In this document: positions 18,327-64,000 of the stretch, one piece after another
Position numbering within the stretch: the stretch's first letter is position 1
How the letters are laid out: each line of letters opens with the position of its first letter
Origin: a virus
Virus record (IMG/VR): IMGVR_UViG_3300027969_002350
Span: 26,494-90,493 of that record
Strand: one strand, 5' to 3'
DNA length: 64,000 nucleotides
Made by a program: the position numbers and the translations under genes
The notes under the pieces: generated by a model
What the model saw: only the letters and a program-made list of their open reading frames with translations
The model's database searches: none
Told to the model about the DNA's origin: nothing

Positions 18327-18552
18327 TTTTTTCGTAGATAAATTTTACTTCTTTGCCTGGTCCTGCTTCGCTGGGCAGGCCGCCATACTCTTTAATATAC
18401 CAAGTAATAGCAGCCTTGTACCATCCTGTGCTATCATGCCTACTTTCTTTATTAAACTTATATATGTTATCATTGGTTGCTTCCATGCTACTAATAATTC
18501 TAGCGGCTTCTAATTGTAACACTCTTAAGGGCATTGTGTCAAGGTCTATCAT
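18319..18552 (-). CDS. Small hypothetical protein
   Basis: 77 aa, overlapping both neighbours in the operon. Confidence 0.75.
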   Translation of the reverse strand: MIDLDTMPLRVLQLEAARIISSMEATNDNIYKFNKESRHDSTGWYKAAITWYIKEYGGLPSEAGPGKEVKFIYEKNE

Positions 18553-28689: not shown

Positions 28690-29386
28690 TTTTCATTTCC
28701 TTTATGCGATTATAAAATAATTCTGCTAAGAATTGATGTGCATCATGATCGAAATGTCCAGTATAATCTGGAACATACCCTTGTTCCATAATATAACGGA
28801 TTGCATTAGTTGCATCACCGTATTTGTTTTTAAAATTTAGTAATGGTAATTTAATTCCAAATGGATTATCGACAATGCTACCACCATGGCAATGTAATTC
28901 TATAAAATAATGTTCTATATTAAATTTGTTTAAAAATGTATTTAAGAATAATAGTGTTCTATTAATCATAACTGTTTCGTATTGTGTACTATGAAATTTT
29001 CCATATAAAATTTCCATAAAGGTTATTTCTTTAGGATCACTTGTAAATTCTTTATTAACACTCCAGGGACCAAACGGTTTCATTGTATAGAAATGAGTGA
29101 ATGTTTGATCTGGTAATGGAATTTCAAATCTAGATAAATCGGTTAAGCCGAATGCAATAACTAAATTTGAAACTTCGTGTGTTTCTAAGTATTCCATCAA
29201 TACACGTTCAGAGCGTTGATTGCTTGCTCCTTCTAATGATAGATTGATACTGTTTTTAAAATTTCCTATATTCTCTAATTTTTTGACCCAACTGCGTTCA
29301 TGACAACTTAATGGATTAATATCCTCACCTAGCGGAGCAAATGTATGACTACACCCAACTCCTAGTAGTGTCTTACCTTCAAACAT
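28682..29386 (-). CDS. SGNH/GDSL-fold protein (tandem paralog of the preceding gene)
   Basis: GCSH, INLS..GASN, GHFDHDAH. Confidence 0.65.
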   Translation of the reverse strand: MFEGKTLLGVGCSHTFAPLGEDINPLSCHERSWVKKLENIGNFKNSINLSLEGASNQRSERVLMEYLETHEVSNLVIAFGLTDLSRFEIPLPDQTFTHFYTMKPFGPWSVNKEFTSDPKEITFMEILYGKFHSTQYETVMINRTLLFLNTFLNKFNIEHYFIELHCHGGSIVDNPFGIKLPLLNFKNKYGDATNAIRYIMEQGYVPDYTGHFDHDAHQFLAELFYNRIKEMKNV

Positions 29387-30779
29387 CTTTAAAAATATCT
29401 TTCATCTCTGGGAAGGTAGTATAAAAATTAGTACCTCGCTGTTTATCTAATAGCTCTAAGTATTCTTTCATTTCTGGCAAACGCACACTCCAGTCTTCAC
29501 TCTTAGCAAATTTAACCATACCGCGAAGACGATCTATACCGTAATCTGCATTTAACCATTGTTCTTCAGTTACTTTACCTTGATGCCATGCTGGCACGCC
29601 TTTTTGCCAATTAGCTTTCCACCACGGAATAAACTCTTCGTACTTGCGTTCAATCTCATCTTTAAACCATGCTGGCAATATCTTAACATTTAAATGTGGT
29701 GGATGATAAACAAAGTGATAGTTAATGCCGCCAGCACCAAATGGCCACATGTTAATCTTCTTAAAGCCATGTTCTAGCTTCCACTTTAAAAACTCTGGGA
29801 TATAATAAATGTTCAGTGCTTGCACGGCACAGGCAATTGATATCTCTACATTTTTTCCTGTCTCGTTATCTAACTGTCTAAATGCTTCTAAGTTTCTTTC
29901 CCACTTACTTGGATAACGAATATAATCATTACGTTCTTCTATAGCATCAACACTATAGTGATAACGAACTAGTTTAAAATGACTCCATAATTCAAATAAA
30001 TCTTCACGCCACTCGACACCATTGCTGTTATAACGTATTTCCATGTCCTTGGCATAGCCACGCTTAATACATTCTTCTAGAATAGCATAATGCTCTTCAA
30101 TGATTAAAGGCTCGCCTCCAGCAAAGTAAAGCTGTTTCATATTAGGAATCTGTTCCCATAACTGTTCCCAGAATTGAGGATTGCTCTTATGCCAATTATA
30201 ACTGGCACCGTTCTCTTGTCCTTTGTTACCCCATTGCATACTATCTTTAAGTACAGGATTAGTAACGTTAGGATACATCTTTTGCCATTCAGGAACCCAT
30301 AAACTACTATCATGCGGACTACACATCACACATGCCAGGTTACATTTAGTACCAAACCTCATGTCAATATAAGCAATATGCGGGGGGACGCTACCGTCTT
30401 CTTGGGTGTCTTCTAATAGTTTGTCTAGATCGACACGTTGGCTCCAGTATTTTGTTTCCCATTCACGTTTAGATTTATGTCCTTCACGTTCTTCCTTGTA
30501 ACACTTAGTACAGCTATCTGGTTCTTCACCTGCTAGCATTTTAAGTCTTGTATTCTTCATGTAGTCATTATTCCAACTACTTAGAAAGTCTGTGTGATTT
30601 AAATTTGCGGGTTTACCATCGGCATTTTTGAGAATACCGACTTCGCCGCCATGAATTTTGTCGTTTGTTGGGCCTACTGAACTTGCATTGGCGGTACAGC
30701 AGACTCGCATATGTCCGTTGGGTCGTGTGCTTAAATGTACCCACGGAAGGATACAAAATGTTTTACTTGGAGTTGTCAT
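29379..30779 (-). CDS. Radical SAM protein with N-terminal twitch-like domain
   Basis: FCILPW..VCC..CTKC; CNLACVMC; GGEP. Confidence 0.92.
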   Translation of the reverse strand: MTTPSKTFCILPWVHLSTRPNGHMRVCCTANASSVGPTNDKIHGGEVGILKNADGKPANLNHTDFLSSWNNDYMKNTRLKMLAGEEPDSCTKCYKEEREGHKSKREWETKYWSQRVDLDKLLEDTQEDGSVPPHIAYIDMRFGTKCNLACVMCSPHDSSLWVPEWQKMYPNVTNPVLKDSMQWGNKGQENGASYNWHKSNPQFWEQLWEQIPNMKQLYFAGGEPLIIEEHYAILEECIKRGYAKDMEIRYNSNGVEWREDLFELWSHFKLVRYHYSVDAIEERNDYIRYPSKWERNLEAFRQLDNETGKNVEISIACAVQALNIYYIPEFLKWKLEHGFKKINMWPFGAGGINYHFVYHPPHLNVKILPAWFKDEIERKYEEFIPWWKANWQKGVPAWHQGKVTEEQWLNADYGIDRLRGMVKFAKSEDWSVRLPEMKEYLELLDKQRGTNFYTTFPEMKDIFKDV

Positions 30780-47870: not shown

Positions 47871-48696
47871 CCAATTCTCCTTCTAAGCCGGATTTTATTT
47901 TTCGATTTAAATAGTCCTGACCCCTATAAATTTTAGGATCAACTGTTAACGGACTTATTTCAATGTTAAACATCTTTGCATAAAAATATAACGCATGTTC
48001 GGTGCCGATTAAATTCTTATTAAACGTTCGTTGGCCTATGACCGGCAGCCATCTATAAAACTCACATATCCTATTAAATGTAACGCTATCAGCAAACCAA
48101 AATACATCACCCAATCTATGAAAGGGAAACTGTACATCATCCTTAGCAGTATGGCAGCTATAAAATGTATTACTATTTGGATAAACTAAGTCTTTGGAAA
48201 CAAAATGTTTAATTTGATAATCTTCAAAAAACATATCAGTTCTCATCCTAATACATACATCATATCTAAAATTGTTGTCATATTCATATTTCTTTTTTAG
48301 ATGGCTGGCATGCATTATACTATAAAATTGGCCTGCGCACCATTCCAGCTTAGTAATACCATGTTCATTTATATGTGGGAAATTTCTATCACGTGTTTCT
48401 TGAATTTTATTTTTATTTGATGTTTCGTCTTCAAATAAAAATGAAATAGGATTCAACGAAGAAACTATACTACGCTTTTCATCTTCCGATATTGTTTCGC
48501 CTGGGACCGTCATATAATCCCATCCTTCGTGCATTAATAATCTATGCGGCGGCGTATTATAATCCCACATGTGGAAAAATATATCAACTGAATCAACTTT
48601 ATAATTAGCTTTTATTGTTTCAATAAATTTGTGCCAAGTTAAATGACATTTTTCCCATGTTCGTGGCTGGCCGCTTAAACAAATAGCAACTCTCAT
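47851..48696 (-). CDS. Putative glycosyltransferase-like protein (SGxxR...RxD family)
   Basis: AICLSGQPR, FHMWD, YDVCIRMRTD. Confidence 0.5.
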   Translation of the reverse strand: MRVAICLSGQPRTWEKCHLTWHKFIETIKANYKVDSVDIFFHMWDYNTPPHRLLMHEGWDYMTVPGETISEDEKRSIVSSLNPISFLFEDETSNKNKIQETRDRNFPHINEHGITKLEWCAGQFYSIMHASHLKKKYEYDNNFRYDVCIRMRTDMFFEDYQIKHFVSKDLVYPNSNTFYSCHTAKDDVQFPFHRLGDVFWFADSVTFNRICEFYRWLPVIGQRTFNKNLIGTEHALYFYAKMFNIEISPLTVDPKIYRGQDYLNRKIKSGLEGELGGHELI

Positions 48697-50093
48697 TTAG
48701 AATTTTTCCATTTAGTGTAGTATGGCTCAAATTCTGGAAACGTTTCTAAAAAGTTAGTGCCGCGACGTTTATCATGTTCATCAACGAATGCAACTAAATC
48801 TTTTTGATATACTGTTACTTCCTCGGGATCTTTTTGATTCATAGTTAATTCATATATGCGTTTAAATTTTTCTGCCTCCCATTTAAAGAATCCTTGATTA
48901 GCACTTCCGTACCATTCACCATTTTCTAAATTACGATACATCATTGTTACTTGATCAAAAATATACTCTTTAGCCCATGACGATGGCATAACATGAAAGA
49001 TACTTTGATGTGCCGGGTGTCTTAGAAACGGTGCATCTAAAATTAACGGGGCATGAACTGCATCGTGTCCTCCAAATTCGTTTTTAATAGCTAATACATC
49101 TTGTAAGAACAACGAATAAGTGGGAATACTAAGCACATTGTACGTACTCATGATAGTAATAGTACACTCGGGTATTTCTTTTAACACTCTGCGAATATTA
49201 CTTAACCATAAATCATAATTTAAGCCGTCACGTATATATTCTGCTGCCTTACCATGAGCATCACAGCTTGTAAAGATTTTAAACTTTTTAACTTTCTTTT
49301 CTTCACAGATAATTTTAACCTTTTCAAGGAACTTGTCAAATAACTGTGATGGTACACACAAGTTACTATTAATACTCAAATGTATATCTGGGTTAGGATT
49401 CTCGATCACATAATCAAGAACTTTAAAGGTATCCTTACTTAGTAACGGCTCGCCGCCGGTTACACGAAAATGCTGTAACTCTTTATAAACTGTGGGCCAC
49501 CATTTCCAAAATGCGTCCACGTAAGGGTTATATTGATTATGCGGGATTGGCATTTGGTCAATTTGTTTTAGTCCTGCAATATCATTAAAGTTGCCATGAG
49601 TAGGATAAGGACCGTGTTGTTTAATTTCTTCCATCCATAGGCTACTCACTTGTGGACTACAATAGCTACATTTAAAATTACAGACGTTACTAAAACTAAC
49701 TTCTAAATAACTTGGAGCAACATCTTGATCCCAGGGCATCTTACTTACTTCTTCAAAATGAGGCTTTGCCCATACGTCATAACTTTTGTAAATTCTATCG
49801 CTAAGAGCATCGGGGGCGCTGTCTTCTACTTTCCAACAATAGTCGCATTCTTTTGGACGTACACCTTCTAACATTAATTTACGTTGTTCTTTTTTGAACT
49901 TAGTATTATGTAACGCACTAGGATTGGCAGCTAATTCATCTAAAGGAATTTTGTGTGTAGTAGGATGATGACAACTATGGTTGTGTCCTGTCTGTAAATG
50001 CAATGTTACTTGCTTCCATTTAGCAATACAAAAACTTGGACTAACATCGTTAATCTTTTTTTGAAATGCAATGATATCTTTATTATGTTCCAT
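48693..50093 (-). CDS. Radical SAM protein with N-terminal twitch-like domain
   Basis: FCIAKW..SCHH..CDYC; CNFKCSYC; GGEP. Confidence 0.92.
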   Translation of the reverse strand: MEHNKDIIAFQKKINDVSPSFCIAKWKQVTLHLQTGHNHSCHHPTTHKIPLDELAANPSALHNTKFKKEQRKLMLEGVRPKECDYCWKVEDSAPDALSDRIYKSYDVWAKPHFEEVSKMPWDQDVAPSYLEVSFSNVCNFKCSYCSPQVSSLWMEEIKQHGPYPTHGNFNDIAGLKQIDQMPIPHNQYNPYVDAFWKWWPTVYKELQHFRVTGGEPLLSKDTFKVLDYVIENPNPDIHLSINSNLCVPSQLFDKFLEKVKIICEEKKVKKFKIFTSCDAHGKAAEYIRDGLNYDLWLSNIRRVLKEIPECTITIMSTYNVLSIPTYSLFLQDVLAIKNEFGGHDAVHAPLILDAPFLRHPAHQSIFHVMPSSWAKEYIFDQVTMMYRNLENGEWYGSANQGFFKWEAEKFKRIYELTMNQKDPEEVTVYQKDLVAFVDEHDKRRGTNFLETFPEFEPYYTKWKNSK

Positions 50094-50094
50094 A

Positions 50095-51066
50095 TTAATT
50101 TATTGAATTATTGACTTGGTTTTCTTTAACCTGGGCGCCAAGCCTGGGTGGATTAATCCAACTTTCTTTAAACATTTTGCTACCGTTGAAGTCTAATTCT
50201 GCTACCTCTAATCCTAGATTAGTGCGTAGAGATTCGCCTAACTTAAAAATTTCATCTTGTAGTTTTTTCTTATCATATGTCCAACCAGAAGTTAGACATT
50301 TTTCGTTGCCGCCCTCGAACTGTGGCTGTACACTATCTTTCCAAAATGCATCATGCCATTCAAAGTCTCGGACTAATGTAAAATCAAAATCTTGTCTAGC
50401 TAAATTTGACATGTAACATCCTAGTCTAGTTCCATACATTGCCCATAGTCCGTTGTCAATATCCGAACCAACACTGGCCCATACTAATAAACGTTTATAG
50501 TTTCTATCATGTACACGTTCTTTAAGTCTCCGCGGATCAACAAGTCCACCTCCTTCTAAGGCAAGTTTAACACCTTCTCTGAATCCTGCACGATATGCTT
50601 GATAAGCACTAGCATTGTTATGTACATCACTATAGATATTATTCATTTGATGATAGTAAATATCCCAACAAAAATCTACCTGTGCCTTGGGATCATCTGC
50701 GGCTTCGTGTGTTTTCATTTGTTCTACAACATGCTTAGGCCAAAGTTTAATTCCGCCATTACCATAAACTAATCCGTTGACAACATTTTTGCCAGCCCAT
50801 GATATAACATCGTGTCTGTTAATCCTTGTCATGTCTAATTCAATAGTTAGAAACTCGTCACGAACAATGTTGTCAGCATCAACTGTAATAAATCTATCTG
50901 TTTCGGCTGAGGCTGCGGCAGCTTTATGTGCCGCATCAAAGCCTTTGACTCCGTGTACCCGTTTGGCCCATGGTGCTTTATTGCAAAGATCAGCAAAATT
51001 TTTATCTGCGTTTGGTTCATCGTAGCTTAAAAATACGATATCAAAACTAGTAATAGGTACAAGCAT
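50095..51066 (-). CDS. Putative glycosyltransferase (GT-A-like, VDAD family)
   Basis: FLSYDEP, GVKGFDAAH, TVDAD, NGLVYGNGGIKLW. Confidence 0.6.
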   Translation of the reverse strand: MLVPITSFDIVFLSYDEPNADKNFADLCNKAPWAKRVHGVKGFDAAHKAAAASAETDRFITVDADNIVRDEFLTIELDMTRINRHDVISWAGKNVVNGLVYGNGGIKLWPKHVVEQMKTHEAADDPKAQVDFCWDIYYHQMNNIYSDVHNNASAYQAYRAGFREGVKLALEGGGLVDPRRLKERVHDRNYKRLLVWASVGSDIDNGLWAMYGTRLGCYMSNLARQDFDFTLVRDFEWHDAFWKDSVQPQFEGGNEKCLTSGWTYDKKKLQDEIFKLGESLRTNLGLEVAELDFNGSKMFKESWINPPRLGAQVKENQVNNSIN

Positions 51067-52027: not shown

Positions 52028-52843
52028 TTATTTTTTTAAATTTAGTAAAGTTTCTTCAGTTAACCAGCCAATTGTTTCATATTTAACTAACCCTAATTGT
52101 ACAAAATTTTCAATTTTAAGAGTACTAGAGTCATTGACCCAATAAGTTAAAAATTCACTCCATCGTCTAGTCCAATTATTATTAACAAAATTATTTTCTT
52201 GTTTTGATAAATCTATACAATGCATAAAATCATATGTAGAAATTTTGCCACTGGTTATTACTTGTAATAATGATAGTACCCAGCCGACCCATATAAACTT
52301 AGGGAACGATGGCATCTCATGTTCTTTATCTGCAAAAAAATTAATATAATTGTCTTGATCATAATTGGCACATAATATAGTAGCCAGGCCAAAAATGTTA
52401 TCACAACCCTTATCTTTATTAAAAAATATAGCATTAGGAATACTACAAAGTCCAAAATTTTTTAATTCTGTACTTGGATTATTGTACAATACCGGATCTA
52501 TGATTTGACTATTAAACGAATATCGATTCCTGGGTAGTATGATAGAATCTAAACCTCTAAGATTTTCCCATACTGTAGTGTCAAATGCTGTTAATAATTG
52601 ATCAGGCAATAACGCAATAGTCTTAGTATACGGAGTTGCTAACAACGCTTGAAAATAGCATAATGTAGGATTTTTGTCTTTTAAATAGATAACTTTATCT
52701 GCTTTTATGAATTTGATATCCTTATTGTTGACAATGACGCTAACAGGACGAGTAGGATCTATTTTTTTAATACTATGAATTAATAAATCTATTTCGACTT
52801 GATTGTCTACATCTCCGTTTACTATTAGATAACCTTCACTCAT
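52028..52843 (-). CDS. Degenerate nucleotide-diphospho-sugar transferase-like protein
   Basis: GYLIV...SIK, TPYTKTIALLPD aligns with SPYKQTLMIDVD of its neighbour. Confidence 0.5.
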   Translation of the reverse strand: MSEGYLIVNGDVDNQVEIDLLIHSIKKIDPTRPVSVIVNNKDIKFIKADKVIYLKDKNPTLCYFQALLATPYTKTIALLPDQLLTAFDTTVWENLRGLDSIILPRNRYSFNSQIIDPVLYNNPSTELKNFGLCSIPNAIFFNKDKGCDNIFGLATILCANYDQDNYINFFADKEHEMPSFPKFIWVGWVLSLLQVITSGKISTYDFMHCIDLSKQENNFVNNNWTRRWSEFLTYWVNDSSTLKIENFVQLGLVKYETIGWLTEETLLNLKK

Positions 52844-53732
52844 AGATAAGTTCCTTAAGTTTAGGGTAGTGTCTTAAAATTGCCATTTTATTCATTAAGT
52901 GTATGTTTTCGTTTATTACTCTGCTACAGATATTTTTCCATAATTCTTTAGGATCAGGGCACAATAAAACGTAATCGCTGAGTGATTTAAATTCCACAAT
53001 GTCATCAATTTGTTCACTGAACCTCATTGCTTTTCCTGGAAGCTCTGATACAATATTTCCCGAATCGTGTCCGTTTAATACATGTGTTGCAATACTGGCA
53101 GCATAGTCGGTTCTGAACAATGCGCCCGGAAACTTGTACAGCCATTTATAATATTGATAATTCTCTTTGACATGTTCCCATATTCCAAAGAATAATTTAG
53201 CCACTTCACTATCGCTTCTCCAATAAACAACAGTACTCCACCACATGTCTATACCATCTGGATGTAGTTTTTGTTCCCAGATACGTGGCTTATAATTACG
53301 AACACTGATAGCATCTTTATACATTGCTAGTTCATAATTAGTATCAAATATTGTATCTAAACTATTATTGCCCACAATGTAATCAACGTCGATCATTAAA
53401 GTTTGTTTGTAAGGACTTTTTTGAAAGATGCTGTGTTTATTCTTATTATTGAATTGTGTACTAAATTCTGTCCAAGGACTATCTCTATGCATCCTTGTAT
53501 TACGTTCGTGTTGAATATCTTCTACAATAATATGGTCAAAAGTATCAGCAAGTTGCTCCATGGTTAATTCTGCTTGTAACACGTTGTATGTTTTTAAATC
53601 CGTAAGCAAGGTTACATGATTGTTTTTCATGTGACGTTTTACGTTTGATGCTGCCACAATGGCTAATTTTTCATAATCAATTTTGCCGTTGTTATATGCA
53701 ATCAGCAAAACACCTTTATCAAATTTAGGCAT
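52836..53732 (-). CDS. Nucleotide-diphospho-sugar transferase (GT-A, GT8-like)
   Basis: KGVLLIAYNN, SPYKQTLMIDVD (DxD), FRTDYA, HLMNK. Confidence 0.6.
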   Translation of the reverse strand: MPKFDKGVLLIAYNNGKIDYEKLAIVAASNVKRHMKNNHVTLLTDLKTYNVLQAELTMEQLADTFDHIIVEDIQHERNTRMHRDSPWTEFSTQFNNKNKHSIFQKSPYKQTLMIDVDYIVGNNSLDTIFDTNYELAMYKDAISVRNYKPRIWEQKLHPDGIDMWWSTVVYWRSDSEVAKLFFGIWEHVKENYQYYKWLYKFPGALFRTDYAASIATHVLNGHDSGNIVSELPGKAMRFSEQIDDIVEFKSLSDYVLLCPDPKELWKNICSRVINENIHLMNKMAILRHYPKLKELIYE

Positions 53733-54078
53733 TTAATCCAACCAATCCTTTAGTGTCTCGCTGTTTTCTTATTTTTTCATAGCTATTGTAGTATTCGTTG
53801 AGAGCTTCTGTGTATGCACTAAACAATCTAGTATGAAAATCTTCCAACGCTGTTATTAAAATTGGATTATTGTTGTCGTCGATGACAACAAACTGTTCTA
53901 CTTTTTTATCTATTAAGTGTTGAACAAAATTGATTAGTTCTAAAGTTGCAGTAAACATAGAATTAGAATACCCGATAGTTAACATCGTATTCATTCGTTG
54001 TTTTAAATTAAGTTTTTGATTGTTTAAAGTTAAGCGGTAGTTACTGAACTCTAACGCTTCTTTTAATTTGTCGTCCAT
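53725..54078 (-). CDS. Hypothetical phage protein
   Basis: GGAG RBS; preceded by TATAAATA. Confidence 0.8.
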   Translation of the reverse strand: MDDKLKEALEFSNYRLTLNNQKLNLKQRMNTMLTIGYSNSMFTATLELINFVQHLIDKKVEQFVVIDDNNNPILITALEDFHTRLFSAYTEALNEYYNSYEKIRKQRDTKGLVGLNA

Positions 54079-54106
54079 TTTGACTCCATTATATACTAGT
54101 ATAATG

Positions 54107-54114
54107 TATTTATA
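54107..54114 (-). promoter_or_regulatory. T4-like late promoter TATAAATA at the head of the enzyme cluster
   Basis: Exact consensus in the intergenic gap. Confidence 0.65.
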
Positions 54115-54132
54115 TTAGCAAAATGAAATATT

Positions 54133-55170
54133 TTAAGGAGTTGTTACTGATCCAGAATAAAGTGGTTGAGTAATAGAGAACGTTGCACTACCACTAGATT
54201 TTGTAGTGGCCTTATTACTTTCAATGTGCAAAGTATGAACACCATTTACCGCAGAGGTATCGGCACTATGTAATACGACCCGAAGTATTAAGCTAACTGG
54301 ACCATTAATATAATTGCCATTTGTTGCAACAATTGATCCATATACTTTTATATTTTTAGTACTACAACCGTAACCGTAACCGTAACCATATCCGTAACCA
54401 TATCCGTAACTGTTATCATTGCAATGTCCATATCCGTAACCATATCCGTAACCGTAACCATATCCGTAACCATATCCGTAACCTCCACCGCCTTTACTGT
54501 TACAAGTTAACAATAATTGTTCAGTGGAGTTTAGATCCCTAAAACCTTTATTTTCACTGATAATGTTAGCAGTAGTTGATATTGTATTAGTTAATTTTAA
54601 ACTAACAACTCCAAATCTAGCATACAGAGATTGCCATAACGCAGATGCTCCAGAACCGGTGCCAGTTAAACTCAAATTGATACTACTATCACTGTTAAAG
54701 AAATAACGAGCTTTGTCGTAAGTATCAAACTGTAATGTTACTGTATAAGTTAAATTAGAATTCCAAACGGTGCTTCTAACTACAGAACCCAATGTAGATA
54801 ATGCTCGTTGTCCATTTGCTGAAGTATTATGCCTGTTATCAATATCAGTTGCTACAGTTTCTATATCATTCCAAATACTTGCTGTAATTTTTTGGCCAAT
54901 GATAACTCTATCTAATTCATAGACGCTTCCTGTGTGCTCTGCACCTAAATTAATTCTATCAATTAGTTCATTAACTAATGCCGCTGTGATTTTTGTTCCA
55001 GTGTTAGAAAAGTTGGCAGATAGATTCCCCCATCCATAGCCTTGTCTTATTTTATCATTTAAAACTGTTCTAGGAATACTACCAGTATAAATGTCAGCAA
55101 AAACTTTATTGGTGCTGTTAACCAACACATTATAGTCTTGCGACGTAATTAACTGACCTTTAGTTGCCAA
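54133..55170 (-). CDS. Putative virion structural protein with YG-repeat insert (TTG start)
   Basis: Ser/Thr/Gly-rich; GYGWG, ITA..WN, ARYFFN motifs; lies in the structural module. Confidence 0.7.
   Translation of the reverse strand: MATKGQLITSQDYNVLVNSTNKVFADIYTGSIPRTVLNDKIRQGYGWGNLSANFSNTGTKITAALVNELIDRINLGAEHTGSVYELDRVIIGQKITASIWNDIETVATDIDNRHNTSANGQRALSTLGSVVRSTVWNSNLTYTVTLQFDTYDKARYFFNSDSSINLSLTGTGSGASALWQSLYARFGVVSLKLTNTISTTANIISENKGFRDLNSTEQLLLTCNSKGGGGYGYGYGYGYGYGYGYGYGHCNDNSYGYGYGYGYGYGYGCSTKNIKVYGSIVATNGNYINGPVSLILRVVLHSADTSAVNGVHTLHIESNKATTKSSGSATFSITQPLYSGSVTTP
54367..54480 (-). repeat. Coding hexamer repeat (TAY GGW)n encoding (YG)9-HCNDNS-(YG)7
   Basis: Read directly from the sequence; codon pairs TACGGA/TATGGT/TACGGT. 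Confidence 0.95.
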
Positions 55171-55171
55171 T

Positions 55172-56113
55172 TTATCTTACTCCGACTGCAACTTCGACAG
55201 ATCCGACACCGTCACTAGTTTTGTCATTTAATGCTCTTCCAATAATGTTTATAGGATTATATTCGTCAGTGGCCATGCCCACGCCTTCGACTTCACTAGA
55301 AACAATGCGTTGGCCTTTACGTACTAGGCCTTTTACTAGACAAGGAACACGACCTTTAAGTGCCACAGGATAAGCATTTTCTTGCATTTTCATTTTGCTG
55401 TTTAGCAAGAAGCCAGGAGCTGTTGATATAATACCAAATACTTCTTCATCGTAGGCTTTAATTGTTTTAGTAATTTCCATTTCGCCACCGAGACGTACAA
55501 TGTTACCAGGAACAAGTTCTACGTCACTTCTATATATTTCTGCCATGTCAGCAAATTCTGCTTCCATAGCACGGCCACGAATTTTAAAATTACCATAATC
55601 AGCGCCGGTGCCATCAACACCGTCATTCATATTAATACCGCAACCAATTGTTGGGAATCTACTCTGTAGGCCAGTGTCTGCATGTGGTGTATAACTAGCG
55701 GCTTCACTGCTAATAATAGCAACAATAGTTCCTATAGTAGCGTTTAGTGTAGCACCTACATGTATTTTAATAGCATGATGGAATTGACCTGCAATATCTT
55801 TAATTAATGCTGTGCTAAAACCATCAACTGGACCTCCAATTAAATCTGTTCCACCAATTGGATTCCATTTATTGCCATCATAGATGCTGACAACTCGTTT
55901 ATTGCTATTCCACCAAAATTGTCCTACTATTGGATTTGTAGGCTCTACTGGATTGCTAAAATTTTCTAGCATTTGAACTAGGTTTTCTGCCATTATTTCG
56001 CCGTAAGCGGAATAATTTTTACCTAGCAACTTGATAGGAGTAGTTGTATCTACTGTCCTGTCTGCAACGATAGTTAATCGTGTGCCGTCTGTTTTTGTAA
56101 CATCATATGCCAT
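55172..56113 (-). CDS. Putative virion structural (baseplate/fibre-associated) protein
   Basis: N-terminal GKNYSAYGE..AENLV.MLENF..P.NP..GQ.WW; C-terminal ADMAE...VALKGRVPC domain of the kind seen in phage fibre proteins. Confidence 0.7.
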   Translation of the reverse strand: MAYDVTKTDGTRLTIVADRTVDTTTPIKLLGKNYSAYGEIMAENLVQMLENFSNPVEPTNPIVGQFWWNSNKRVVSIYDGNKWNPIGGTDLIGGPVDGFSTALIKDIAGQFHHAIKIHVGATLNATIGTIVAIISSEAASYTPHADTGLQSRFPTIGCGINMNDGVDGTGADYGNFKIRGRAMEAEFADMAEIYRSDVELVPGNIVRLGGEMEITKTIKAYDEEVFGIISTAPGFLLNSKMKMQENAYPVALKGRVPCLVKGLVRKGQRIVSSEVEGVGMATDEYNPINIIGRALNDKTSDGVGSVEVAVGVR

Positions 56114-56148
56114 TCTTCAAAATTCCTTTATTGTTATATTTACCTATT

Positions 56149-56760
56149 TTAATTTACTCTGATTCGTAAAGTATAGATAATTTGTATTACCCTGTTTGCT
56201 GATTTTTGCACTGGATCAAATACAATATGACTTAACAAATAACCAGTATTTTTACCGTTTCGCCCTTTACTTTTTAAACCCAATTCGTTGAAAATATAGT
56301 CACCATTTAACGCTTCGGGGTTACTAACTAAATTATTCTCACTAGATGAATTGGGTTCATTTTCTTCTAAGGTTAATGTTATAACTAAATCAGTATAGTT
56401 CAACCCAGAGGTATGTGTTACAATAACATTATTATTTGTAGGATCTGTATTATTACCACTGTCTACTTGATCAACTACTTTATAATATGTAGCATTATAT
56501 AATCCTGCTTCAATTCCGGTTGATAAGTTATCAGTTACATCATTATACGTTATGTTACCAGTTTCGTCAATAATAAGGCCGCCATTGCCTAAATGCATCT
56601 CATAAATATGACTGTCGTTATTACCTTGTAACATAGTTGCAATTATTAATGTCATAGTTTCTGGATTAATTGCATTGTGTTTGCTGACAAAGATTTCTTG
56701 GGTTTGTGGATCCCAAATTCTTACATGTCCGTCAATATTAATATTTGTCGAATCTATCAT
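56149..56760 (-). CDS. Putative virion structural protein
   Basis: GHVRIWDP, FNELGLKS, HIVFDPVQKSANRVIQIIYTLRI; TTAAATA and AGGA upstream. Confidence 0.65.
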   Translation of the reverse strand: MIDSTNINIDGHVRIWDPQTQEIFVSKHNAINPETMTLIIATMLQGNNDSHIYEMHLGNGGLIIDETGNITYNDVTDNLSTGIEAGLYNATYYKVVDQVDSGNNTDPTNNNVIVTHTSGLNYTDLVITLTLEENEPNSSSENNLVSNPEALNGDYIFNELGLKSKGRNGKNTGYLLSHIVFDPVQKSANRVIQIIYTLRIRVN

Positions 56761-56801
56761 TTTATTTCCTGTATACTGTATTTAACTAAATTTTTAACTA
56801 C

Positions 56802-59800
56802 TCAGTTAAAAACTATAGTATCTCCTGCTTGTTCTCCACCAAAACCTATTAAAATTTCTTCGTCGTCGATGTATAAAGTCTCATCAAAACCCAAACTTGT
56901 ATTTTCAATTAATTGTTTTGTAACTGTAGAACTACGTATTTTATCTCTGTAACTCTTAACACTAGAATAGAAACCAGTTAGTACCGATACATTATCTCGT
57001 TGTAATGTATTTGTTCCGCTTAATGTTTGTCCGATTAAATTAATCGGTTCGATAGTGCTAGATTTTTGCAACCAGTCTACATTGATTTGCTCGCTTAATA
57101 TGTATCTAAACATAGTACACGTTAATTTAGAATAGCTAGTTTCATAGGAATCAACAAAAACATTGTTACGGAATGCTTCCATTAAGGCATAAAATACATT
57201 ACATAAATCAAAATCCCAAGGAACATTAATTTGTTCCCATTTTGATCCATCCCATGTCCCTTTTGAATCAAACAACTCGTCGCTTAGTTTAATTGCACCT
57301 TTATTATTATCAGGATCTGCTTGTCTGAACACTAATTTATAGCCACCGTTAACGTCTTTTTCAAATATTGTATTATCATTCTTGACTTTAATATATGAAT
57401 TAGTTGTCACCGATAACGCATACATATCTGCTAATGATTGTACAGTTGCTGATATTTTTTTAGTAGAATCATAATCTTCACTTTGAAAATCTGTAAATGT
57501 CCAATAATTTTTAACATTAACAAGATCTCCAAACAATGGATATGCAGTTTGATTCAATATTTCATCCCAGTTTGTCAGTGAACTAATATCTATATTCAAT
57601 AACAATTGATTTGCTCGTTTAACAAATGTACGTCTAGCTTCGTAGATATTCTTAAACCAACTTTGTGGATTTGGTCGAATAGAATTTCCAAGTTGCGAAT
57701 ATCGGTGAAGTTTAATCATATCTGGAACATTTTTAGTAATATCAAATCTAAATGTAGTAGCATCAATCTCTTCTAAACAAACTACAGTCTGCCATTTTGA
57801 AGGTCTGAATTGGCCAATTGTCGTGTTTCTACAAACATAAAAATCTCCGTTATATTTTACAAAATCACTTTGACTATATAAGCGACTCGATGAATACGTT
57901 GTATAGTTTGCAGTAACCTTATAATGAATACCGCCAGCAATACTGTCGCGGAAGCGTGTGTGTATCCACTGCGGCATTGTTTCAGTTGTGTTTGCTTCTG
58001 ATACAAATAACCATTGTTGGTGCTTTTCTTCGCCTTTAAGTTTTTTCTTAATCTGTACGACCGTGCTACTATTGTTTAATAAATGTCCAACGCCTTTTAA
58101 CATAATACTATTTGAATTAATAGGAGCATACCACGATAAGCCGGCAGCACTTGGATTTAATAATATTTTACTTAATTGGCTAGTAGCATACACTCTAACG
58201 TTTTTGCTTTCTGCGCTAATAGTATTTTTATTCTTAACCCAGAAATAATAAACAGTATAAAGTTTACCGCTAACATAGTCTTGTTCTTCAACCCAGTGGC
58301 AATTATCTTTACCAGAACTAGAATCTAAATATGCTTCACCGCTGGCAACTTGTCCAAATGCTATTCCGTTAGTTTCTACTAATTTATTCCATTGTGTTGG
58401 ATGTACTGGGCTTTTTGTCCATTCATATATATCAGGTAGTGTGCCATCTACAGTTGTACCCCAATAGCGCGATCTAGATGTAACGTCGCCGCTTTCATAA
58501 TCATTGAATTGACAAGTACTAGTGTTCCACCAACGGCGGCCGAGATACTCTTCATACCAACCCTGACTTGCGTAAACGCTTTTAAATGCATCTGTTGTTC
58601 TAGTATATTTTGCAGGATCTACTCTGCCGATAACATCAATATCGTCTTTGAATACTTTTGGAAGATAGAGTTTACGGGGATCAAATAAATCTAACTTAGC
58701 CAATACTTTGTTGGCATTATAATCATATATCATTACATGTTCGATATCGCTGTGATCTAAAGGTAAAGAATCTGTTTTGATAATTGTTTTTGTAATAACG
58801 TTAGACTGCATCATTTTATAAACATTATAATTACCAAAGTCAAAACTAGTGTCGCCTGTGTTAGTTCCCAGGCTGTCGTCGATTATAGCAATAGGATACG
58901 AAGCATCGTATCCGCTAGTTGTAATAGGTAACGTAATTTCAGTTGTTCCTAACGCATTACTCAAAGGATTAAATTTCTTTTTCCAAGAATATCCTTTGGC
59001 GTCTGTTGCTAAATTTAGTTCACTGATATTTTTAAATCTTACAGGTTTGAATACAAACAGTTTACCCGTTTTTATAGTTTCAGTAATTCTAGTATCTATA
59101 TAAAATTTAAAGTTATCTTCGATAGATTCTATTTTCCATATACCATTAGCGTCAGCATTAGTGCCATTTGCATTAATAACTAATACATAATCTCCAACTT
59201 CGGCACGGTGTGCAATATTACAAGATATTCTAGCTTGACTAACATCAGTGAGCCCGGTACATACTTCGTTGATTGAAATATTTCTGTCAATGGTTTGTAA
59301 TACTTGCCAAGTACTAGGAGTAAACATACTATTACCCGACTTGCTTAGATTAGGATTTGTTTTATCATAATTTGAAACAAATATATTGGGCAAAAATGGT
59401 TCATCGACTGCTGAAAACTTGTCACTATTATTGATCCATGCATTGGGACTAACTGTAGTTAATGCATAATATAAGTATCCGTTGTATCTAACTAAATCGT
59501 ATTTTTTATATGACGACGTTATCGAATACGTGTTAATATTATATAACTCGGCAAAGTTTCCATATAAATTTGGCAAGTCGTCGAGGGTCGAGATACTATA
59601 ATTTGTATCGCCAGTAATTATAGGTCCGCTGGTTTTTAAATCGGTATAAGATCTGTCTAATTTTGTAAAACTAATATTCTTATTCTGTGGTTTATAAATC
59701 CATTTCTGTGACTTATGTGTAATATAATGAATGTTTGGATTTACCTTTTCATCATTTTTATTAATGAAACTAATGACCTGAGGATTTTTAGTAACATCAT

Positions 59801-62800
59801 CAGATGTTAATTCAAATTCATAGAATTCAATATTTTTAGTATTTCCAAATTCTCCAAGGCGTACCATATACTCTTCTAAAGGAGCAGTAGTATTACCATC
59901 ACTATGAGTCAATGGTTCTAATCCTGTAAATACTTGACTAGTGCCTTTCATATACGTAATAGAGTTTTTAAATAATACTTCAGAGTCGTCTTGTAAGAAA
60001 AGTTGTCGTAATTCAGGATTTCTGTTTAGTCCGAACTGTGCCCGACTTGCATCAAGCAATGTATTATCTTCGATTACATTTTCTATATCTAATAAATTTC
60101 TGCCGACTTCAGAGTATGTATCGTAGTTAGGAATAATAGAATTATCACTTACGACATAACCAGGAACAAAATATTTTCCATCCCATTCTTGACTCTTTTT
60201 GCCGCCAAGGACAAAACTGCGCTTAGTAGTACACTGATCCGGTAAGAAATAAATATCACCAAATACACTGGTCGAATCTAAATGTACCACTGATTCATAC
60301 GTAGCAAATGTTAATTTAATTCCATATACTGGATTATTTGTATTTTTAGATTTAATAATAATACCGCCGCCGCGTTCAACTAATAAATCTTTACTAAACA
60401 ATGGCTTATTTTTTCTATCAACACATTGTCCAACATTCTCATTTGTACCTTCTAAGTTTTCTAACTGGCCGTAGGCAGTAGATAAAACAATACCCGACGC
60501 CGCTGGATTTAAATCAATATAGTTGCCGGGTGCAATATTATCATTACTCCAGAATATAAACTGGCTGGCACTCATTTGCCAATTACGCAAATCATATGTT
60601 TCTACTTCTTCAAATTTAAATCCTTGTGCTTCTAAATATTTGCCGTAGCCAACAATAATATCATAAATTTGTTGCCGGCTCGTAAATTCTTGTCCGTATG
60701 TTACAGCAATTATATTAGATGTATAAACATTTTTTTCTTTAATTACTACTGAGCCTATAGTTTTTGGTGTAGTGGCGCTATTTGCCACTGGCTCAAAATA
60801 ATTAAGATAACCACGCTCATTAGCAAAACCATGAATAGAATATGCACTACCGTTCCATATAACTCTTAGAGCTGAATAAAAAATTTCTTTACTGGAATAA
60901 TGTTTAATTAGTCTAACCTGATAATTTTCTTCTGGTATAAACAATGTTTTACGTTGACTAGAAATACTAGTGCTTTCTATTCTAATATTATTTTTGTTAC
61001 TAAATCCATTTAACAAAAATTCTTTATTAACTGCTAAATTATTAAATTTGTCTATTACTGTTGATTTAAAATCTTTATTATTCAATGCACAGAATTCTGC
61101 AAATAAACTTTCGATACCGGCTGTATATTCTACATTGCCGTCGACAACTTGTCTATGATAATAATGCTCTATACTACCTTGAAGCCAAAACTCGCTTGTT
61201 TTGTCTAAATTAATTCCCCATGCATTTTTAATTGTTTGCCCAGGAACCCAATTTAAATTTACATATTTTGCAGGACTTGCTAAGAATTTTAATTTTGCTT
61301 CGGCTGCTAATCCACGTTGCGTATTTAAGAATACTGTTTCAAAAGGACCCTGATCACTTACAACCCAATCGCGATCTTTTTCTAATACACTAGCACCGAG
61401 CCATAATAAATTTAAAGGTGCAATTAATTTCCCATCAATATCTACTGGAAAGTCTTCATGATCATTTACATTACTAATTCTTGCAAAGAATGGATTAATT
61501 CTAGGTGCATCAGGTGTATTTCTATTACCCGTTCGTAACGATTTTTCTAATGCTGTTCGTTTAACAGGATCAGTCCAGCTATAATGTGTATCCCACCACA
61601 ATGGTTTTAATGTATATCCTAACATCTCCCATGGATGTGTGTGCGGACGGTCAGTATCATACAAATACTTGTAAATAGCTCTCCACGATCCTGTAGTAGA
61701 GTTTGCATCGTCACCCGAACCAATTTGATATATTAAAGTAAACGGATCTGATTCTTCATAATCAGAGTTAGCCATAATGAAAATATTATTTTCTGCCATC
61801 CATGTTAATACTTCACTGTTAACAACTGTACGTATTTCAGACCATGCATATCTGCCATTTCTAAAATATCCAGGCTGTTCTTCTAATAACTCGGCATTAC
61901 TATTATTCTCTACATCATATGCAATGTTGCCCCAAATAGCTTTTTCGTATTCAAACAACAACTGATCTATTATATTGATAGGATAGGTATCTACATCAAC
62001 ACCTTCGTTCAAATAATAACGTGTTCCGTCGTGTCTACATAAAAAATATTTTGTGCTTGCATAGCTAGTGTCGGCATATATCTCAGGACGGTAAACAGGG
62101 CTTAATCCGATTTTTGCTAAACTTGCAGGTATTTTAGAATTAAATTCTTCTACCCATTGTCTAATAGTTACTGTTGTTCCTGTAAATGATGGATCTAATA
62201 CTATGGAAGTATAATAACCATCTGATGAAGATAGTGTATAATCTATATTTCGCATTAGTAATCTATTATTAGCAACTATGTGCAATAGTGTTTCTTTGCC
62301 TGCTCGATGATTAATTAAATTCAATCCGTCATTGAGTGGGATTTCAAATACCGTAGATATTGTTATTGTTTTTTCAAAGTAATCTGTAGTATTTCCCCAA
62401 CCTAACATATTACTATGATACCAGAAATTTTCATTGTTAGTCTGATTTAAAAATATACGTTTGGTTGCCAAGTTTAAAATGTCTAGACTAGATATTATTG
62501 AAGTGTCGGTTGTATTAATAATTTGTTCTAGTTCGTAAATTAATTTACTTAAGAACATGTCATAGTGCTTGCCTTGCTTAATAATAATTTCACTAAAATC
62601 ATAGGGCAAATTAGTTGTTATAATTGCTGCCTTGACTAATGGATAATTATGCTTTAATAGGGTGCCGCCGCCCATACTAGAATTAATTAAACTAGAATCA
62701 TTTTGAGTTGTTTCTTTAGAATTAGATGCATTTGATTTTAAATTAATTACATGTTGATATAATGCATAATAATTAATAGTATCTAATTTAGAATTTAATG

Positions 62801-64000
62801 GATTTGTAGTTAAACTCAGTGGAGCAGTCCTACTAGTAGGAGCAGATAATACTGTATCTAAACAAATTTTATCTCCGTATAAAGATTTTTGATTTAATAT
62901 CGGAGACGATACAAGTTGTTGATAATAATTTAATGAGCCGTCACTATTTGTAATATCATTTATAGTGTAATCATACGACTCGTATATTGGATTTGTTTTA
63001 TCTCGAAGATATGCAAATTGAATAAATCTCCATTTATTTAAAGGACGAATAATTGCAGATTTTGTTACATTGTTTGCAACCCAAAATAATCTTGTTGTAT
63101 CTATATTTAATTTATTATCTATATATCCAGATCCTATGTCTATACTAGAAGATAAATCTAATTCAATTACTCCGTTGTTTATACCATTATTATAACAATA
63201 TGGCTCTTCTATCAACACCGGAGTTGATATATTGTTAATAATTTCTGTAGTATAAAAAGTTATTGGAAAAGGTAAATCGTGACAAATAATTTTAAAGATG
63301 TCTCCTGAAACTAGAGGTATAATTTGTTCTAATATATGAAAACCTCGTTTGCTAGAAAATCTAACTAAGCCGTGGCCTTCTATATTGTAATAGAATTTTA
63401 ATTTTTCCTTATCATCGTAGAATATATGTATAGTGTCAAATCCCATTGCCGTTGGAATCAATTTTCCCGACCATTGTACATCAGTATTATCATCATAAAA
63501 TAAATCCTGTGTTTGTCTAGTAATATCTAAACCTCGACGAGGTTGATAAAAAGATATAGGAGTTACAGAATTGAAATTATACCCGTAAGGTCCTTTTATA
63601 GCAACTTCTTCGCCTGTAGTTATATGATTATAATAAAATGTTTTATCAATATCTGTAGTAAACTTAATTTGATTTGGACTAACATTTAAGGAATTATTTT
63701 CATCTATCAAATCAAAATCAATATTACTGACTGTAATGTAACGTTCTAACGTATAATCAAATACGCTTCCTGGAGCAAAGTCTAATATCGTAGCTCCTTT
63801 GTAGTCACTTTCGTTAAAAGTTTCTAAATTAATATTGTCGCTAGTATAAAATTCAAATTTTGGTGATTGATTTTTTGTTGTTTTATTTTGTGCAAATTGC
63901 CAAATATCATTTTTAAATAAAACTTTATTATATCTAATATTCGAGTTCGCAACTACCAATGCTCCGTCACCCGAGACAACTGGGATACTAAGTGCAAAAG
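56802..64000 (-). CDS. Very large (>2390 aa) putative virion structural protein, 5'-truncated by the window edge
   Basis: Frame is open to the window end; YDTDRPHTHPWEMLG and YEWTKS motifs; next to structural genes. Confidence 0.75.
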   Translation of the reverse strand, partial: FALSIPVVSGDGALVVANSNIRYNKVLFKNDIWQFAQNKTTKNQSPKFEFYTSDNINLETFNESDYKGATILDFAPGSVFDYTLERYITVSNIDFDLIDENNSLNVSPNQIKFTTDIDKTFYYNHITTGEEVAIKGPYGYNFNSVTPISFYQPRRGLDITRQTQDLFYDDNTDVQWSGKLIPTAMGFDTIHIFYDDKEKLKFYYNIEGHGLVRFSSKRGFHILEQIIPLVSGDIFKIICHDLPFPITFYTTEIINNISTPVLIEEPYCYNNGINNGVIELDLSSSIDIGSGYIDNKLNIDTTRLFWVANNVTKSAIIRPLNKWRFIQFAYLRDKTNPIYESYDYTINDITNSDGSLNYYQQLVSSPILNQKSLYGDKICLDTVLSAPTSRTAPLSLTTNPLNSKLDTINYYALYQHVINLKSNASNSKETTQNDSSLINSSMGGGTLLKHNYPLVKAAIITTNLPYDFSEIIIKQGKHYDMFLSKLIYELEQIINTTDTSIISSLDILNLATKRIFLNQTNNENFWYHSNMLGWGNTTDYFEKTITISTVFEIPLNDGLNLINHRAGKETLLHIVANNRLLMRNIDYTLSSSDGYYTSIVLDPSFTGTTVTIRQWVEEFNSKIPASLAKIGLSPVYRPEIYADTSYASTKYFLCRHDGTRYYLNEGVDVDTYPINIIDQLLFEYEKAIWGNIAYDVENNSNAELLEEQPGYFRNGRYAWSEIRTVVNSEVLTWMAENNIFIMANSDYEESDPFTLIYQIGSGDDANSTTGSWRAIYKYLYDTDRPHTHPWEMLGYTLKPLWWDTHYSWTDPVKRTALEKSLRTGNRNTPDAPRINPFFARISNVNDHEDFPVDIDGKLIAPLNLLWLGASVLEKDRDWVVSDQGPFETVFLNTQRGLAAEAKLKFLASPAKYVNLNWVPGQTIKNAWGINLDKTSEFWLQGSIEHYYHRQVVDGNVEYTAGIESLFAEFCALNNKDFKSTVIDKFNNLAVNKEFLLNGFSNKNNIRIESTSISSQRKTLFIPEENYQVRLIKHYSSKEIFYSALRVIWNGSAYSIHGFANERGYLNYFEPVANSATTPKTIGSVVIKEKNVYTSNIIAVTYGQEFTSRQQIYDIIVGYGKYLEAQGFKFEEVETYDLRNWQMSASQFIFWSNDNIAPGNYIDLNPAASGIVLSTAYGQLENLEGTNENVGQCVDRKNKPLFSKDLLVERGGGIIIKSKNTNNPVYGIKLTFATYESVVHLDSTSVFGDIYFLPDQCTTKRSFVLGGKKSQEWDGKYFVPGYVVSDNSIIPNYDTYSEVGRNLLDIENVIEDNTLLDASRAQFGLNRNPELRQLFLQDDSEVLFKNSITYMKGTSQVFTGLEPLTHSDGNTTAPLEEYMVRLGEFGNTKNIEFYEFELTSDDVTKNPQVISFINKNDEKVNPNIHYITHKSQKWIYKPQNKNISFTKLDRSYTDLKTSGPIITGDTNYSISTLDDLPNLYGNFAELYNINTYSITSSYKKYDLVRYNGYLYYALTTVSPNAWINNSDKFSAVDEPFLPNIFVSNYDKTNPNLSKSGNSMFTPSTWQVLQTIDRNISINEVCTGLTDVSQARISCNIAHRAEVGDYVLVINANGTNADANGIWKIESIEDNFKFYIDTRITETIKTGKLFVFKPVRFKNISELNLATDAKGYSWKKKFNPLSNALGTTEITLPITTSGYDASYPIAIIDDSLGTNTGDTSFDFGNYNVYKMMQSNVITKTIIKTDSLPLDHSDIEHVMIYDYNANKVLAKLDLFDPRKLYLPKVFKDDIDVIGRVDPAKYTRTTDAFKSVYASQGWYEEYLGRRWWNTSTCQFNDYESGDVTSRSRYWGTTVDGTLPDIYEWTKSPVHPTQWNKLVETNGIAFGQVASGEAYLDSSSGKDNCHWVEEQDYVSGKLYTVYYFWVKNKNTISAESKNVRVYATSQLSKILLNPSAAGLSWYAPINSNSIMLKGVGHLLNNSSTVVQIKKKLKGEEKHQQWLFVSEANTTETMPQWIHTRFRDSIAGGIHYKVTANYTTYSSSRLYSQSDFVKYNGDFYVCRNTTIGQFRPSKWQTVVCLEEIDATTFRFDITKNVPDMIKLHRYSQLGNSIRPNPQSWFKNIYEARRTFVKRANQLLLNIDISSLTNWDEILNQTAYPLFGDLVNVKNYWTFTDFQSEDYDSTKKISATVQSLADMYALSVTTNSYIKVKNDNTIFEKDVNGGYKLVFRQADPDNNKGAIKLSDELFDSKGTWDGSKWEQINVPWDFDLCNVFYALMEAFRNNVFVDSYETSYSKLTCTMFRYILSEQINVDWLQKSSTIEPINLIGQTLSGTNTLQRDNVSVLTGFYSSVKSYRDKIRSSTVTKQLIENTSLGFDETLYIDDEEILIGFGGEQAGDTIVFN

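Follow-up and report, generated by a model that had tools for sequence, protein, structure and literature searches.

We examined a 64,000-nucleotide stretch of viral DNA (positions 26,494 to 90,493 of the IMG/VR record IMGVR_UViG_3300027969_002350; 'the window' below), in which a minus-strand open reading frame (ORF) at 54133-55170 encodes a 345-residue protein with a tyrosine-glycine (YG) repeat tract. Profile comparison groups this protein with virion proteins of the fibre/baseplate module, an as yet uncharacterised family typified by gp360 of Pseudomonas phage PA5oct, and places the tract in a single loop that differs in length between close relatives. The reading of the loop that we hold most likely, at about an even chance, is that it is exposed and paratope-like, a length-hypervariable set of tyrosines that serves adhesion or host receptor binding and is tuned by replication slippage. 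A sequence-only reading of the same DNA had proposed either a multivalent acceptor of modifications, like the core of a peptide made by ribosomes and modified after translation (RiPP), or an adhesive loop on the virion. The adhesive loop agrees with the function that we infer here; the acceptor, as a substrate of the neighbouring radical S-adenosylmethionine (SAM) enzymes, is not supported by the gene content of relatives or by the type of enzyme.

The ORF, as given by the ORF list and its translation, starts at TTG and encodes a conserved N-terminal domain of ~220 residues, the tract, and a C-terminal domain of ~75 residues. The tract reads C223-NSK-GGGG-(YG)9-H-C250-NDNS-(YG)7-C269 and with its three cysteines spans 54364-54504 on the minus strand: C223 at 54502-54504, GGGG (residues 227-230) at 54481-54492 and (YG)9 (residues 231-248) at 54427-54480, followed by HCNDNS (residues 249-254) at 54409-54426, (YG)7 (residues 255-268) at 54367-54408 and C269 at 54364-54366. 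Residues 223, 250 and 269 are all the cysteines of the protein. A script count bore out the 16 YG dipeptides after GGGG, with three Cys around them, that had been described from the sequence; the coordinates given at that time (54358-54495) include the tract but leave out C223.

At the DNA level, the tract is an imperfect tandem repeat with periods of 6, 18 and 30 nt and 69-71% matches (tandem repeat finder). Its main building block is the 12-nt unit TAC GGA TAT GGT, and the alternation of synonymous codons remarked on in the sequence-only reading is correct. Tyr codon use in the tract (10 TAC to 6 TAT) differs from that in the remainder of the gene (1 TAC to 10 TAT; Fisher p = 0.008). Perfect 6-nt arrays number three copies in the window and at most five in the 15 homologs examined; since they never exceed five copies, the peptide repeat is maintained while the DNA drifts. 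No second ORF in the window has (YG)3 or longer, and a Gly/Tyr tract occupies the equivalent place in 24/24 close homologs, so the tract is not a product of chance. It is under protein-level selection. Most of the Gly/Tyr codons of the tract (28/36, from codon counts and the genetic code) are one base away from a Cys codon.

A repeat of this kind could also be an artefact, i.e. a microsatellite collapsed or expanded during assembly, or a non-coding repeat in a spurious ORF. Logan unitigs from four runs of three studies, labelled as freshwater or lake metagenomes, tile the tract. They are exact in the run with the best cover, possibly the source sample; a run of a separate study contains 54381-54481 exactly, crossing the HCNDNS centre; and a contig of one other run shows 6 gap positions over 54023-54453, a variant that we counted for length variability. 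As no single unitig covers the entire tract, its exact repeat number depends on the original assembly. Summed contig depth over 54370-54436 exceeded that of the flanks by a factor of hundreds to thousands in three freshwater runs, so that numerous further contigs of these samples must carry similar YG-coding repeats (≥90% likeness). Neither this spike nor the uncovered parts in some runs was used as evidence. The missing full-length unitig and a depth raised by other repeats of the same samples would both fit an artefact. Against this stand the exact unitigs, including those of another study, and the frame, open and preserved across >100 loci of equal gene order, as the earlier claim that the tract is held in frame would have it. 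An artefact is thus very improbable, and the assembly error that the sequence-only reading had itself offered as grounds for discarding its proposal is excluded in essentials.

Sequence and profile searches of Pfam, PHROG, NCBIfam and PDB gave no match to the tract protein, and neither positions 53000-57000 of the window (megablast) nor the protein (tblastn) matched any of 50,697 phage records. ESM Atlas returned viral hypothetical clusters only. A word-indexed search found 72 homologs, and 299 representative clusters matched at E ≤ 1e-3, most of them over residues ~1-230. In a search of cultured phages, a more distant marine homolog (P0037) does reach PA5oct-type phages and the Ralstonia phage RsoM2USA, and hhalign of the family alignment against PA5oct gp360 gave a probability of 99.6% (E = 7e-24, 253 columns). 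Homology with gp360 (YP_010678854.1) extends through the N-terminal domain into the beginning of the C-terminal one; unlike the window protein, gp360 lacks a Tyr/Gly tract, and its C-terminal part is longer and unrelated. Its record notes mass-spectrometric detection ('ESI-MS/MS'). The family N-terminal domain is marked by the motifs ITAxDYN, GWG/GYGQ, ARYFFNSGG and GFYDLT. Relative to gp360, the tract is an insertion in the profile alignment between 'EQLLLTCNSK' and 'TKNIKVYGSIV'. The loop is flanked by two conserved strands, '...GFRDLNSTEQLLLTCNSK' on one side and 'TKNIKVYGSIV...' on the other, where the conserved N-terminal domain meets the small C-terminal one.

In longer relatives, the family domain is fused to fn3, Big_13, SprB and subtilase modules, which are typical of surface proteins. 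It stands at the end of proteins of 1059-1241 aa in loci L127, L128, L134, L146 and L147, one of which (L134) also has a long (GGY)n tract, and P0083 combines it with a subtilase (Peptidase_S8) domain in one protein. The window comes from a viral contig of 90.5 kb, estimated to represent 25% of a genome; related contigs run to 285 kb, with an estimated completeness of 86%, and the lineage is therefore one of jumbo phages. The virus that carries the tract is an uncultured freshwater jumbo myovirus.

We then compared the loop across relatives. Among the IMG/VR loci of a first scan, 26/29 carry 8-23 YG; L027 has a different Tyr-rich form, and L028 and L029 have no tract. The marine clade (78 loci) has two shorter YG runs within a 60-80-residue segment of Tyr, Gly, Ser and Ala, while in a third clade the tracts, comparable in length, are (GGY)n and often interrupted by EDCNGG, ADCGG or DNCHTGG. 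The loop is Gly/Tyr-rich in all 106 aligned superfamily members, from 'GGGYYS'-type turns (the short form looks like 'SGGGYYS') up to long arrays of (YG)n, (GGY)n, (SGY)n, (GAY)n, (GEY)n or (NGY)n, the constant element being Tyr spaced by small residues. Several loci of the (GGY)n clade (L159, L160, L162, L164, L186 and L134) have a central acidic-Cys interruption (EDCNGG, ADCGGAGG, DNCHTGG) that resembles HCNDNS, and a central Cys beside Asp, Asn or His recurs in separate clades and in different repeat types.

Of the 30 closest pairs listed, only the 4 that are identical over the compared domains share the tract; in the other 26 its length differs, including pairs whose N-domains are 96% and C-domains 100% identical. 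Length is the fastest-changing feature. The 76 unique tract-bearing relatives have 6-24 Tyr, with internal Cys in 22, flanking Cys in 25 and both in 12. The Cys positions shift from relative to relative, with contexts such as GYGCGY, GYGCYGG, NCYD and EDCNGG. The bracket of three Cys that had been stressed from the sequence is therefore present in the window protein but is not conserved, and as a conserved disulfide or metal site it was rejected as a family feature, both types of Cys occurring in only 12/76 relatives.

The sequence-only reading had proposed that the presence or length of the tract might covary with radical SAM content. We tabulated presence and absence for 66 unique family proteins with ≥9 kb of downstream sequence, counting radical SAM genes within 9 kb. 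Tract and radical SAM occurred together in 40, radical SAM with a weak or no tract in 15, a tract with no radical SAM in 10, and neither in 1, so the proposed covariation fails. The first scan found a radical SAM ORF downstream in 22/29 loci, the remaining 7 ending ≤4.2 kb from the gene. L029 has the enzyme module and no tract; conversely, the (GGY)n clade has long tracts and no radical SAM within 9 kb, with 1-8 distant ones per contig.

Tract length was also compared with radical SAM number. Over 9 whole contigs of the freshwater clade, the YG count follows the number of PF04055 matches near one-to-one (rho 0.96). L003 (19 YG, 10 matches) and L102 (9 YG, 11 matches) were left out because their radical SAM matches run up to the contig end, and L014 because the contig is truncated on the side of the island; adding L003 back lowers rho to 0.75. 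On 9 marine contigs, rho was 0.38 for YG and 0.80 for the Tyr count, a post hoc measure; radical SAMs were counted by NF033640 at E ≤ 1e-3 in the marine set and by PF04055 in the freshwater set, and the absolute numbers are not comparable between the two. When radical SAM ORFs were counted uniformly over the first 9 kb, the relation was absent, with rho values of 0.0 (n=13), 0.32 (n=36) and -0.31 (n=49). All of these correlations are uncorrected for relatedness. The whole-contig rho of 0.96 is suggestive, yet it was not reproduced by the uniform measure; it is unexplained and we do not count it as support.

These comparisons bear on the explanation that the tract is a modification acceptor, with tyrosines that are O-glycosylated by GT8-like/GT-A-like glycosyltransferases (GTs) encoded 2-5 genes downstream, or that the radical SAMs cross-link, splice or change in some other way. 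The gene order is suggestive of such a role. Downstream of the tract gene, all on the minus strand, come a small conserved protein of 117 aa (53725-54078), the GT-like gene at 52836-53732, two proteins of unknown function, a second enzyme-like gene at 50095-51066, and the first radical SAM of the island (48693-50093). The position of the tract gene in a structural module, directly upstream of GT-like and radical SAM genes, was thus borne out. Freshwater and marine clades alike carry an N-terminal-twitch radical SAM next, and the YG count tracks radical SAM number over whole contigs in the nine freshwater cases. The enzymes, however, also accompany family proteins that lack a tract (L028, L029 and gp355 of RsoM2USA), 10 tract-bearing proteins conversely have no radical SAM within 9 kb, and the uniform count shows no correlation. 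Taken together, we consider the acceptor explanation unlikely.

The enzymes themselves argue further against a peptide substrate. The 48693-50093 protein has an N-terminal twitch domain and CxxxCxxC at residue 138, and matches NF033640 from end to end (1.1e-101; model positions 1-398 on residues 18-459 of 466); in freshwater-clade loci, its orthologs are placed downstream of the tract gene at a distance of ~4 kb. In a scan of 15 radical SAM proteins, 9 passed NF033640 only and 0 passed a peptide-maturase model, the best maturase scores being 20-41 bits against cut-offs of 300-650. The nif11-like maturase model of NCBIfam, which we take to stand for the spliceases, gave 25.8 bits against a cut-off of 518.7. 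The radical SAMs are of the NF033640 type without an extra recognition domain. Their auxiliary-cluster domain is N-terminal (SPASM match at residues 9-71), unlike the C-terminal SPASM with an N-terminal recognition element that a RiPP maturase would have. No PqqD-like protein was detected on the 90.5-kb contig by PF05402 at E ≤ 0.1, a search that covers ~25% of the genome and that divergent Y proteins could escape, and none of 37 proteins scanned matched PqqD.

The closest known parallel for a peptide substrate is the spliceotide system (PlpX/PlpY/PlpA), which excises tyramine. All 16 tract tyrosines stand in GYG, SYG or GYGC/H contexts, which formally fit the XYG splice motif given in the excerpted text of PMC11414181, and radical SAM genes are near. 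The differences are that the radical SAMs here are N-terminal-twitch enzymes, that no PqqD-like Y protein was found, and that tract and radical SAM do not covary. A PlpX-type splicease system is not supported, with no splicease-type radical SAM among the 15 proteins scanned and no PqqD-like Y protein found on the contig (~25% of a genome); nor is a radical SAM/SPASM RiPP maturase with an embedded core, on both enzyme architecture and co-occurrence. The RiPP-like substrate that the sequence-only reading had suggested is likewise not supported: each partner occurs without the other, the nearest enzymes are of the N-terminal-twitch type and no PqqD-like protein was found on the contig. Other enzymes of the island, namely a nucleoside triphosphate (NTP) transferase, a carbamoyltransferase, an aldolase and a cupin, are of sugar-nucleotide type and fit small-molecule or sugar chemistry.

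The island is rich in radical SAMs, with at least 13 such domains within the window. Positions 2209-50093 and the lineage as a whole (G001-G020) are extraordinarily so: there are 13 PF04055 matches on the contig and 8-19 on each related freshwater contig with an uncut island, and marine contigs have 10-21 matches to the NF033640 model. Most of the radical SAMs of the lineage are paralogs with an N-terminal twitch domain. Two of them (24809-26065 and 29379-30779) have a Pfam SPASM-type domain at residues 9-71 and 9-94, respectively, before the core, which is the reverse of the usual order.

Glycosylation has to be weighed separately. The small 117-aa protein, which has no family match in Pfam, PHROG or NCBIfam, follows the tract gene in all loci with flanking sequence, and the two GT-like genes adjoin the family gene in 66/66 loci, also where the tract is absent. 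With the two genes always adjacent, the loop may be glycosylated. The 52836-53732 protein is probably a glycosyltransferase and the 50095-51066 protein possibly one. The first is a GT-A-like (GT8-like) candidate with an invariant D-x-D (MIDVDY) in the family alignment; its language-model features in the Atlas are 0.95-0.97 alike to nucleotide-diphospho-sugar transferase and Glyco_transf_8 clusters, while its Pfam glycosyltransferase matches are all sub-threshold (E ≤ 5). The second, possibly of GT-A type, has an invariant D-A-D and 1-3 paralogs in relatives, and Glycos_transf_2 appears just at E ≥ 0.1 and in 3/15 members. We graded the two differently because the first combines Atlas likeness and D-x-D with its sub-threshold Pfam matches, against weaker GT2 hints for the second. 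PDB searches gave nothing usable for either family.

The GT8 enzyme glycogenin attaches glucose to a tyrosine, and mycobacteriophage virion proteins are glycosylated by phage glycosyltransferases. A specific form of the acceptor explanation would be a brush of unusual Tyr-linked glycans on the fibre tip, in which the GT8-like/GT-A-like enzymes O-glycosylate the tyrosines, the radical SAM island tailors the sugars in most clades, and slippage tunes the density. We regard this as quite doubtful. If true, it would be glycogenin-like chemistry on a virion and would explain the tracking of YG and radical SAM numbers in the freshwater-clade contigs.

The single cultured phage found with the whole module is RsoM2USA (MG752970.1; positions 217327-223553, equal to 12328-18554 of locus L187). 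Its gp355 has the family domain, gp354 is a 123-aa protein, gp353 resembles the 52836-53732 protein (31% identity), gp350 the 50095-51066 protein (46%), and gp349 is a 473-aa radical SAM. It differs in the loop, which is short and not Tyr-rich ('...IYSWTSAAMAFTVDV...'), and in the fusion of the family domain behind a fibre N-terminal motif. In this 344-kb genome, the module genes are all annotated 'hypothetical protein', and an NAD-dependent epimerase/dehydratase gene and the tail sheath gene lie just upstream.

If the tract acts unmodified, it could still do so without ligand specificity, as a structural or cohesive element of near-neutral length: the arms would form either a rigid beta-ribbon spacer or a Tyr zipper that self-associates, and would keep adjacent copies together on the baseplate or determine how far the C-terminal domain reaches. 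Strict alternation would put all Tyr on one strand face, and turn-like interruptions (NGGN, NCYD, NCGG, HRCPGD, HCNDNS, EDCNGG) divide the tract into arms. GYGYGYG peptides are described in published abstracts as self-assembling into cross-beta fibrils, and the YG domain of PEX13 as forming a cohesive conduit. The wide range of lengths (6-24 Tyr) would also be expected under weak constraint. A simple hairpin nevertheless fits poorly, as the arms are often unequal or multiple (e.g. 8+2+2+4 in L001), and the fold and oligomeric state that this explanation needs are themselves conjectural. Moreover, independent expansions with differing small residues keep Tyr constant, which suggests that selection acts on the Tyr side chains. 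Overall, we consider a purely structural or cohesive role, in either form, rather unlikely.

The binding-loop reading is favoured because of the geometry of a ribbon or brush together with analogues among antibody loops, YG peptides and phage adhesins. We propose that an ancestral loop was already Gly/Tyr-rich and that replication slippage would have expanded it into (YG)n in this lineage, selection retaining the peptide repeat while synonymous changes wore down the DNA repeat. Since strict alternation puts Tyr on one strand face and turns with abundant Asn, Gly, Asp and Cys break the tract into arms, the loop probably either protrudes as a ribbon or is a flexible brush. In the first case, the YG arms would form a two-stranded ribbon around the HCNDNS turn and expose an array of tyrosines; in the second, the tyrosines would form a brush at the start of the C-terminal domain. 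Either way, the array could act as a sticky, easily re-tuned surface that binds the host envelope, much as a Tyr/Gly/Cys-rich third heavy-chain complementarity-determining region (CDR-H3) of an antibody binds its antigen. Occasional Cys would presumably come from one-base changes in Tyr or Gly codons, and the loop would be independent of the radical SAM island.

The antibody parallel extends to sequence. According to the excerpts of PMC7366855, bovine germline heavy-chain diversity (DH) segments read SCYSGYGYGYGCGYGYGY and similar, and their GGT/TAT codons readily mutate to Cys in the antigen-binding CDR-H3. The DH segments of ultralong CDR-H3 (IGHD6-3, IGHD7-4 and IGHD8-2) share with the tract GYGYGY runs punctuated by Cys and codons one base from Cys, and the bovine CDR-H3 is a binding loop with a beta-ribbon stalk (PMC7366855). 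The systems differ in that the bovine one is vertebrate and uses hypermutation by activation-induced cytidine deaminase (AID), whereas the phage loop varies between genomes by slippage and point mutation; the resemblance is convergence, not homology.

Among phages, the nearest analogues in logic are the gp38 adhesins of T2/T6-type phages, in which, as excerpted from PMC3157838, five conserved Gly-rich motifs separate four hypervariable segments. Both are distal-fibre proteins in which a Gly-rich framework and a hypervariable part would give a re-tunable receptor-binding surface. There is no sequence relation by Pfam or PHROG, and the tract protein has one length-variable dipeptide loop where the gp38 segments described there are non-repetitive. 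Identity as a gp38-type adhesin was accordingly rejected, there being no Pfam/PHROG match and a single repeat loop in place of five motifs. The loop would fall among the hypervariable binding loops of phage distal proteins.

Several points weigh against a binding loop. Its exposure, ribbon geometry and oligomeric state are inferred from sequence, and the virion location comes by way of a distant, tract-less homolog and its record note only. The two GT-like genes, adjacent in 66/66 loci, are equally compatible with a modified or an unmodified loop, and the correlations with radical SAM number (rho 0.96 for YG on the 9 freshwater contigs, and the post hoc 0.80 for Tyr on the 9 marine ones) are not accounted for by this reading. 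Low-complexity loops can also be neutral spacers.

The genes upstream of the tract gene, likewise on the minus strand, have counterparts in PA5oct. The first (55172-56113) encodes a short fibre-like protein of 313 aa with PHROG matches that include 'tail fiber protein'. Its residues 1-117 match the N-termini of PA5oct gp358 and gp359 by tblastn (gp359 being annotated 'virion structural protein'), and its weak Peptidase_G2 match suggests an autoproteolytic chaperone-type domain. The C-terminal 130 residues match tail-fibre C-termini. Next comes a conserved structural-module protein of 203 aa (56149-56760; phrog_11259, 6.9e-54), with a tblastn match to the gp357 region (3.6e-25). The third (56802-63998) encodes a giant virion structural protein of >2385 aa that extends past the window (phrog_10938 'virion structural protein', 7.8e-167; tblastn 8e-69 to gp355) and is the VrlC-position protein ahead of the fibre genes and the enzyme island. 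PA5oct gp355, gp357, gp358, gp359 and gp360 are syntenic with these window genes, each with the record note 'ESI-MS/MS'. In both phages, a giant virion protein, a small protein and fibre-like proteins precede the family protein, which is last in the block; in PA5oct, gp360 is not followed by GT-like or radical SAM genes. This synteny backs the earlier statement that the tract gene is the last structural-type gene before the enzyme run.

The island context is already known. The cluster that Zaragoza-Solas et al. (2020) describe for host recognition in pelagimyophages and cyanomyophages is, in the excerpts of PMC7029224, a hypervariable island behind a VrlC-type gene with fibre, glycosyltransferase and radical SAM genes, and the window island likewise lies behind a giant VrlC-type gene with fibre, GT-like and radical SAM genes. 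It differs in that the present lineage is one of jumbo phages and that neither the Tyr-Gly tract nor the family is described in those excerpts. A literature search for YGYGYG-type strings gave no phage protein with a Tyr-Gly repeat among the matches listed. What is new is the family assignment, the Gly/Tyr loop as an ancient feature expanded in several repeat forms, and the negative result on coupling to the radical SAMs.

Very little is known about how the jumbo myophages that abound, uncultured, in lakes and oceans recognize their hosts. The comparisons presented here identify a conserved virion protein family whose single loop is the fastest-changing element of the structural module. This loop has converged on the chemistry of Tyr, Gly and Cys with which vertebrate antibodies bind. 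Should it be a receptor-binding surface, slippage would be a simple way to tune host range, unlike diversity-generating retroelements and the segment shuffling of gp38-type adhesins. The loop also offers a concrete protein target for probing the role of phage GT and radical SAM islands.

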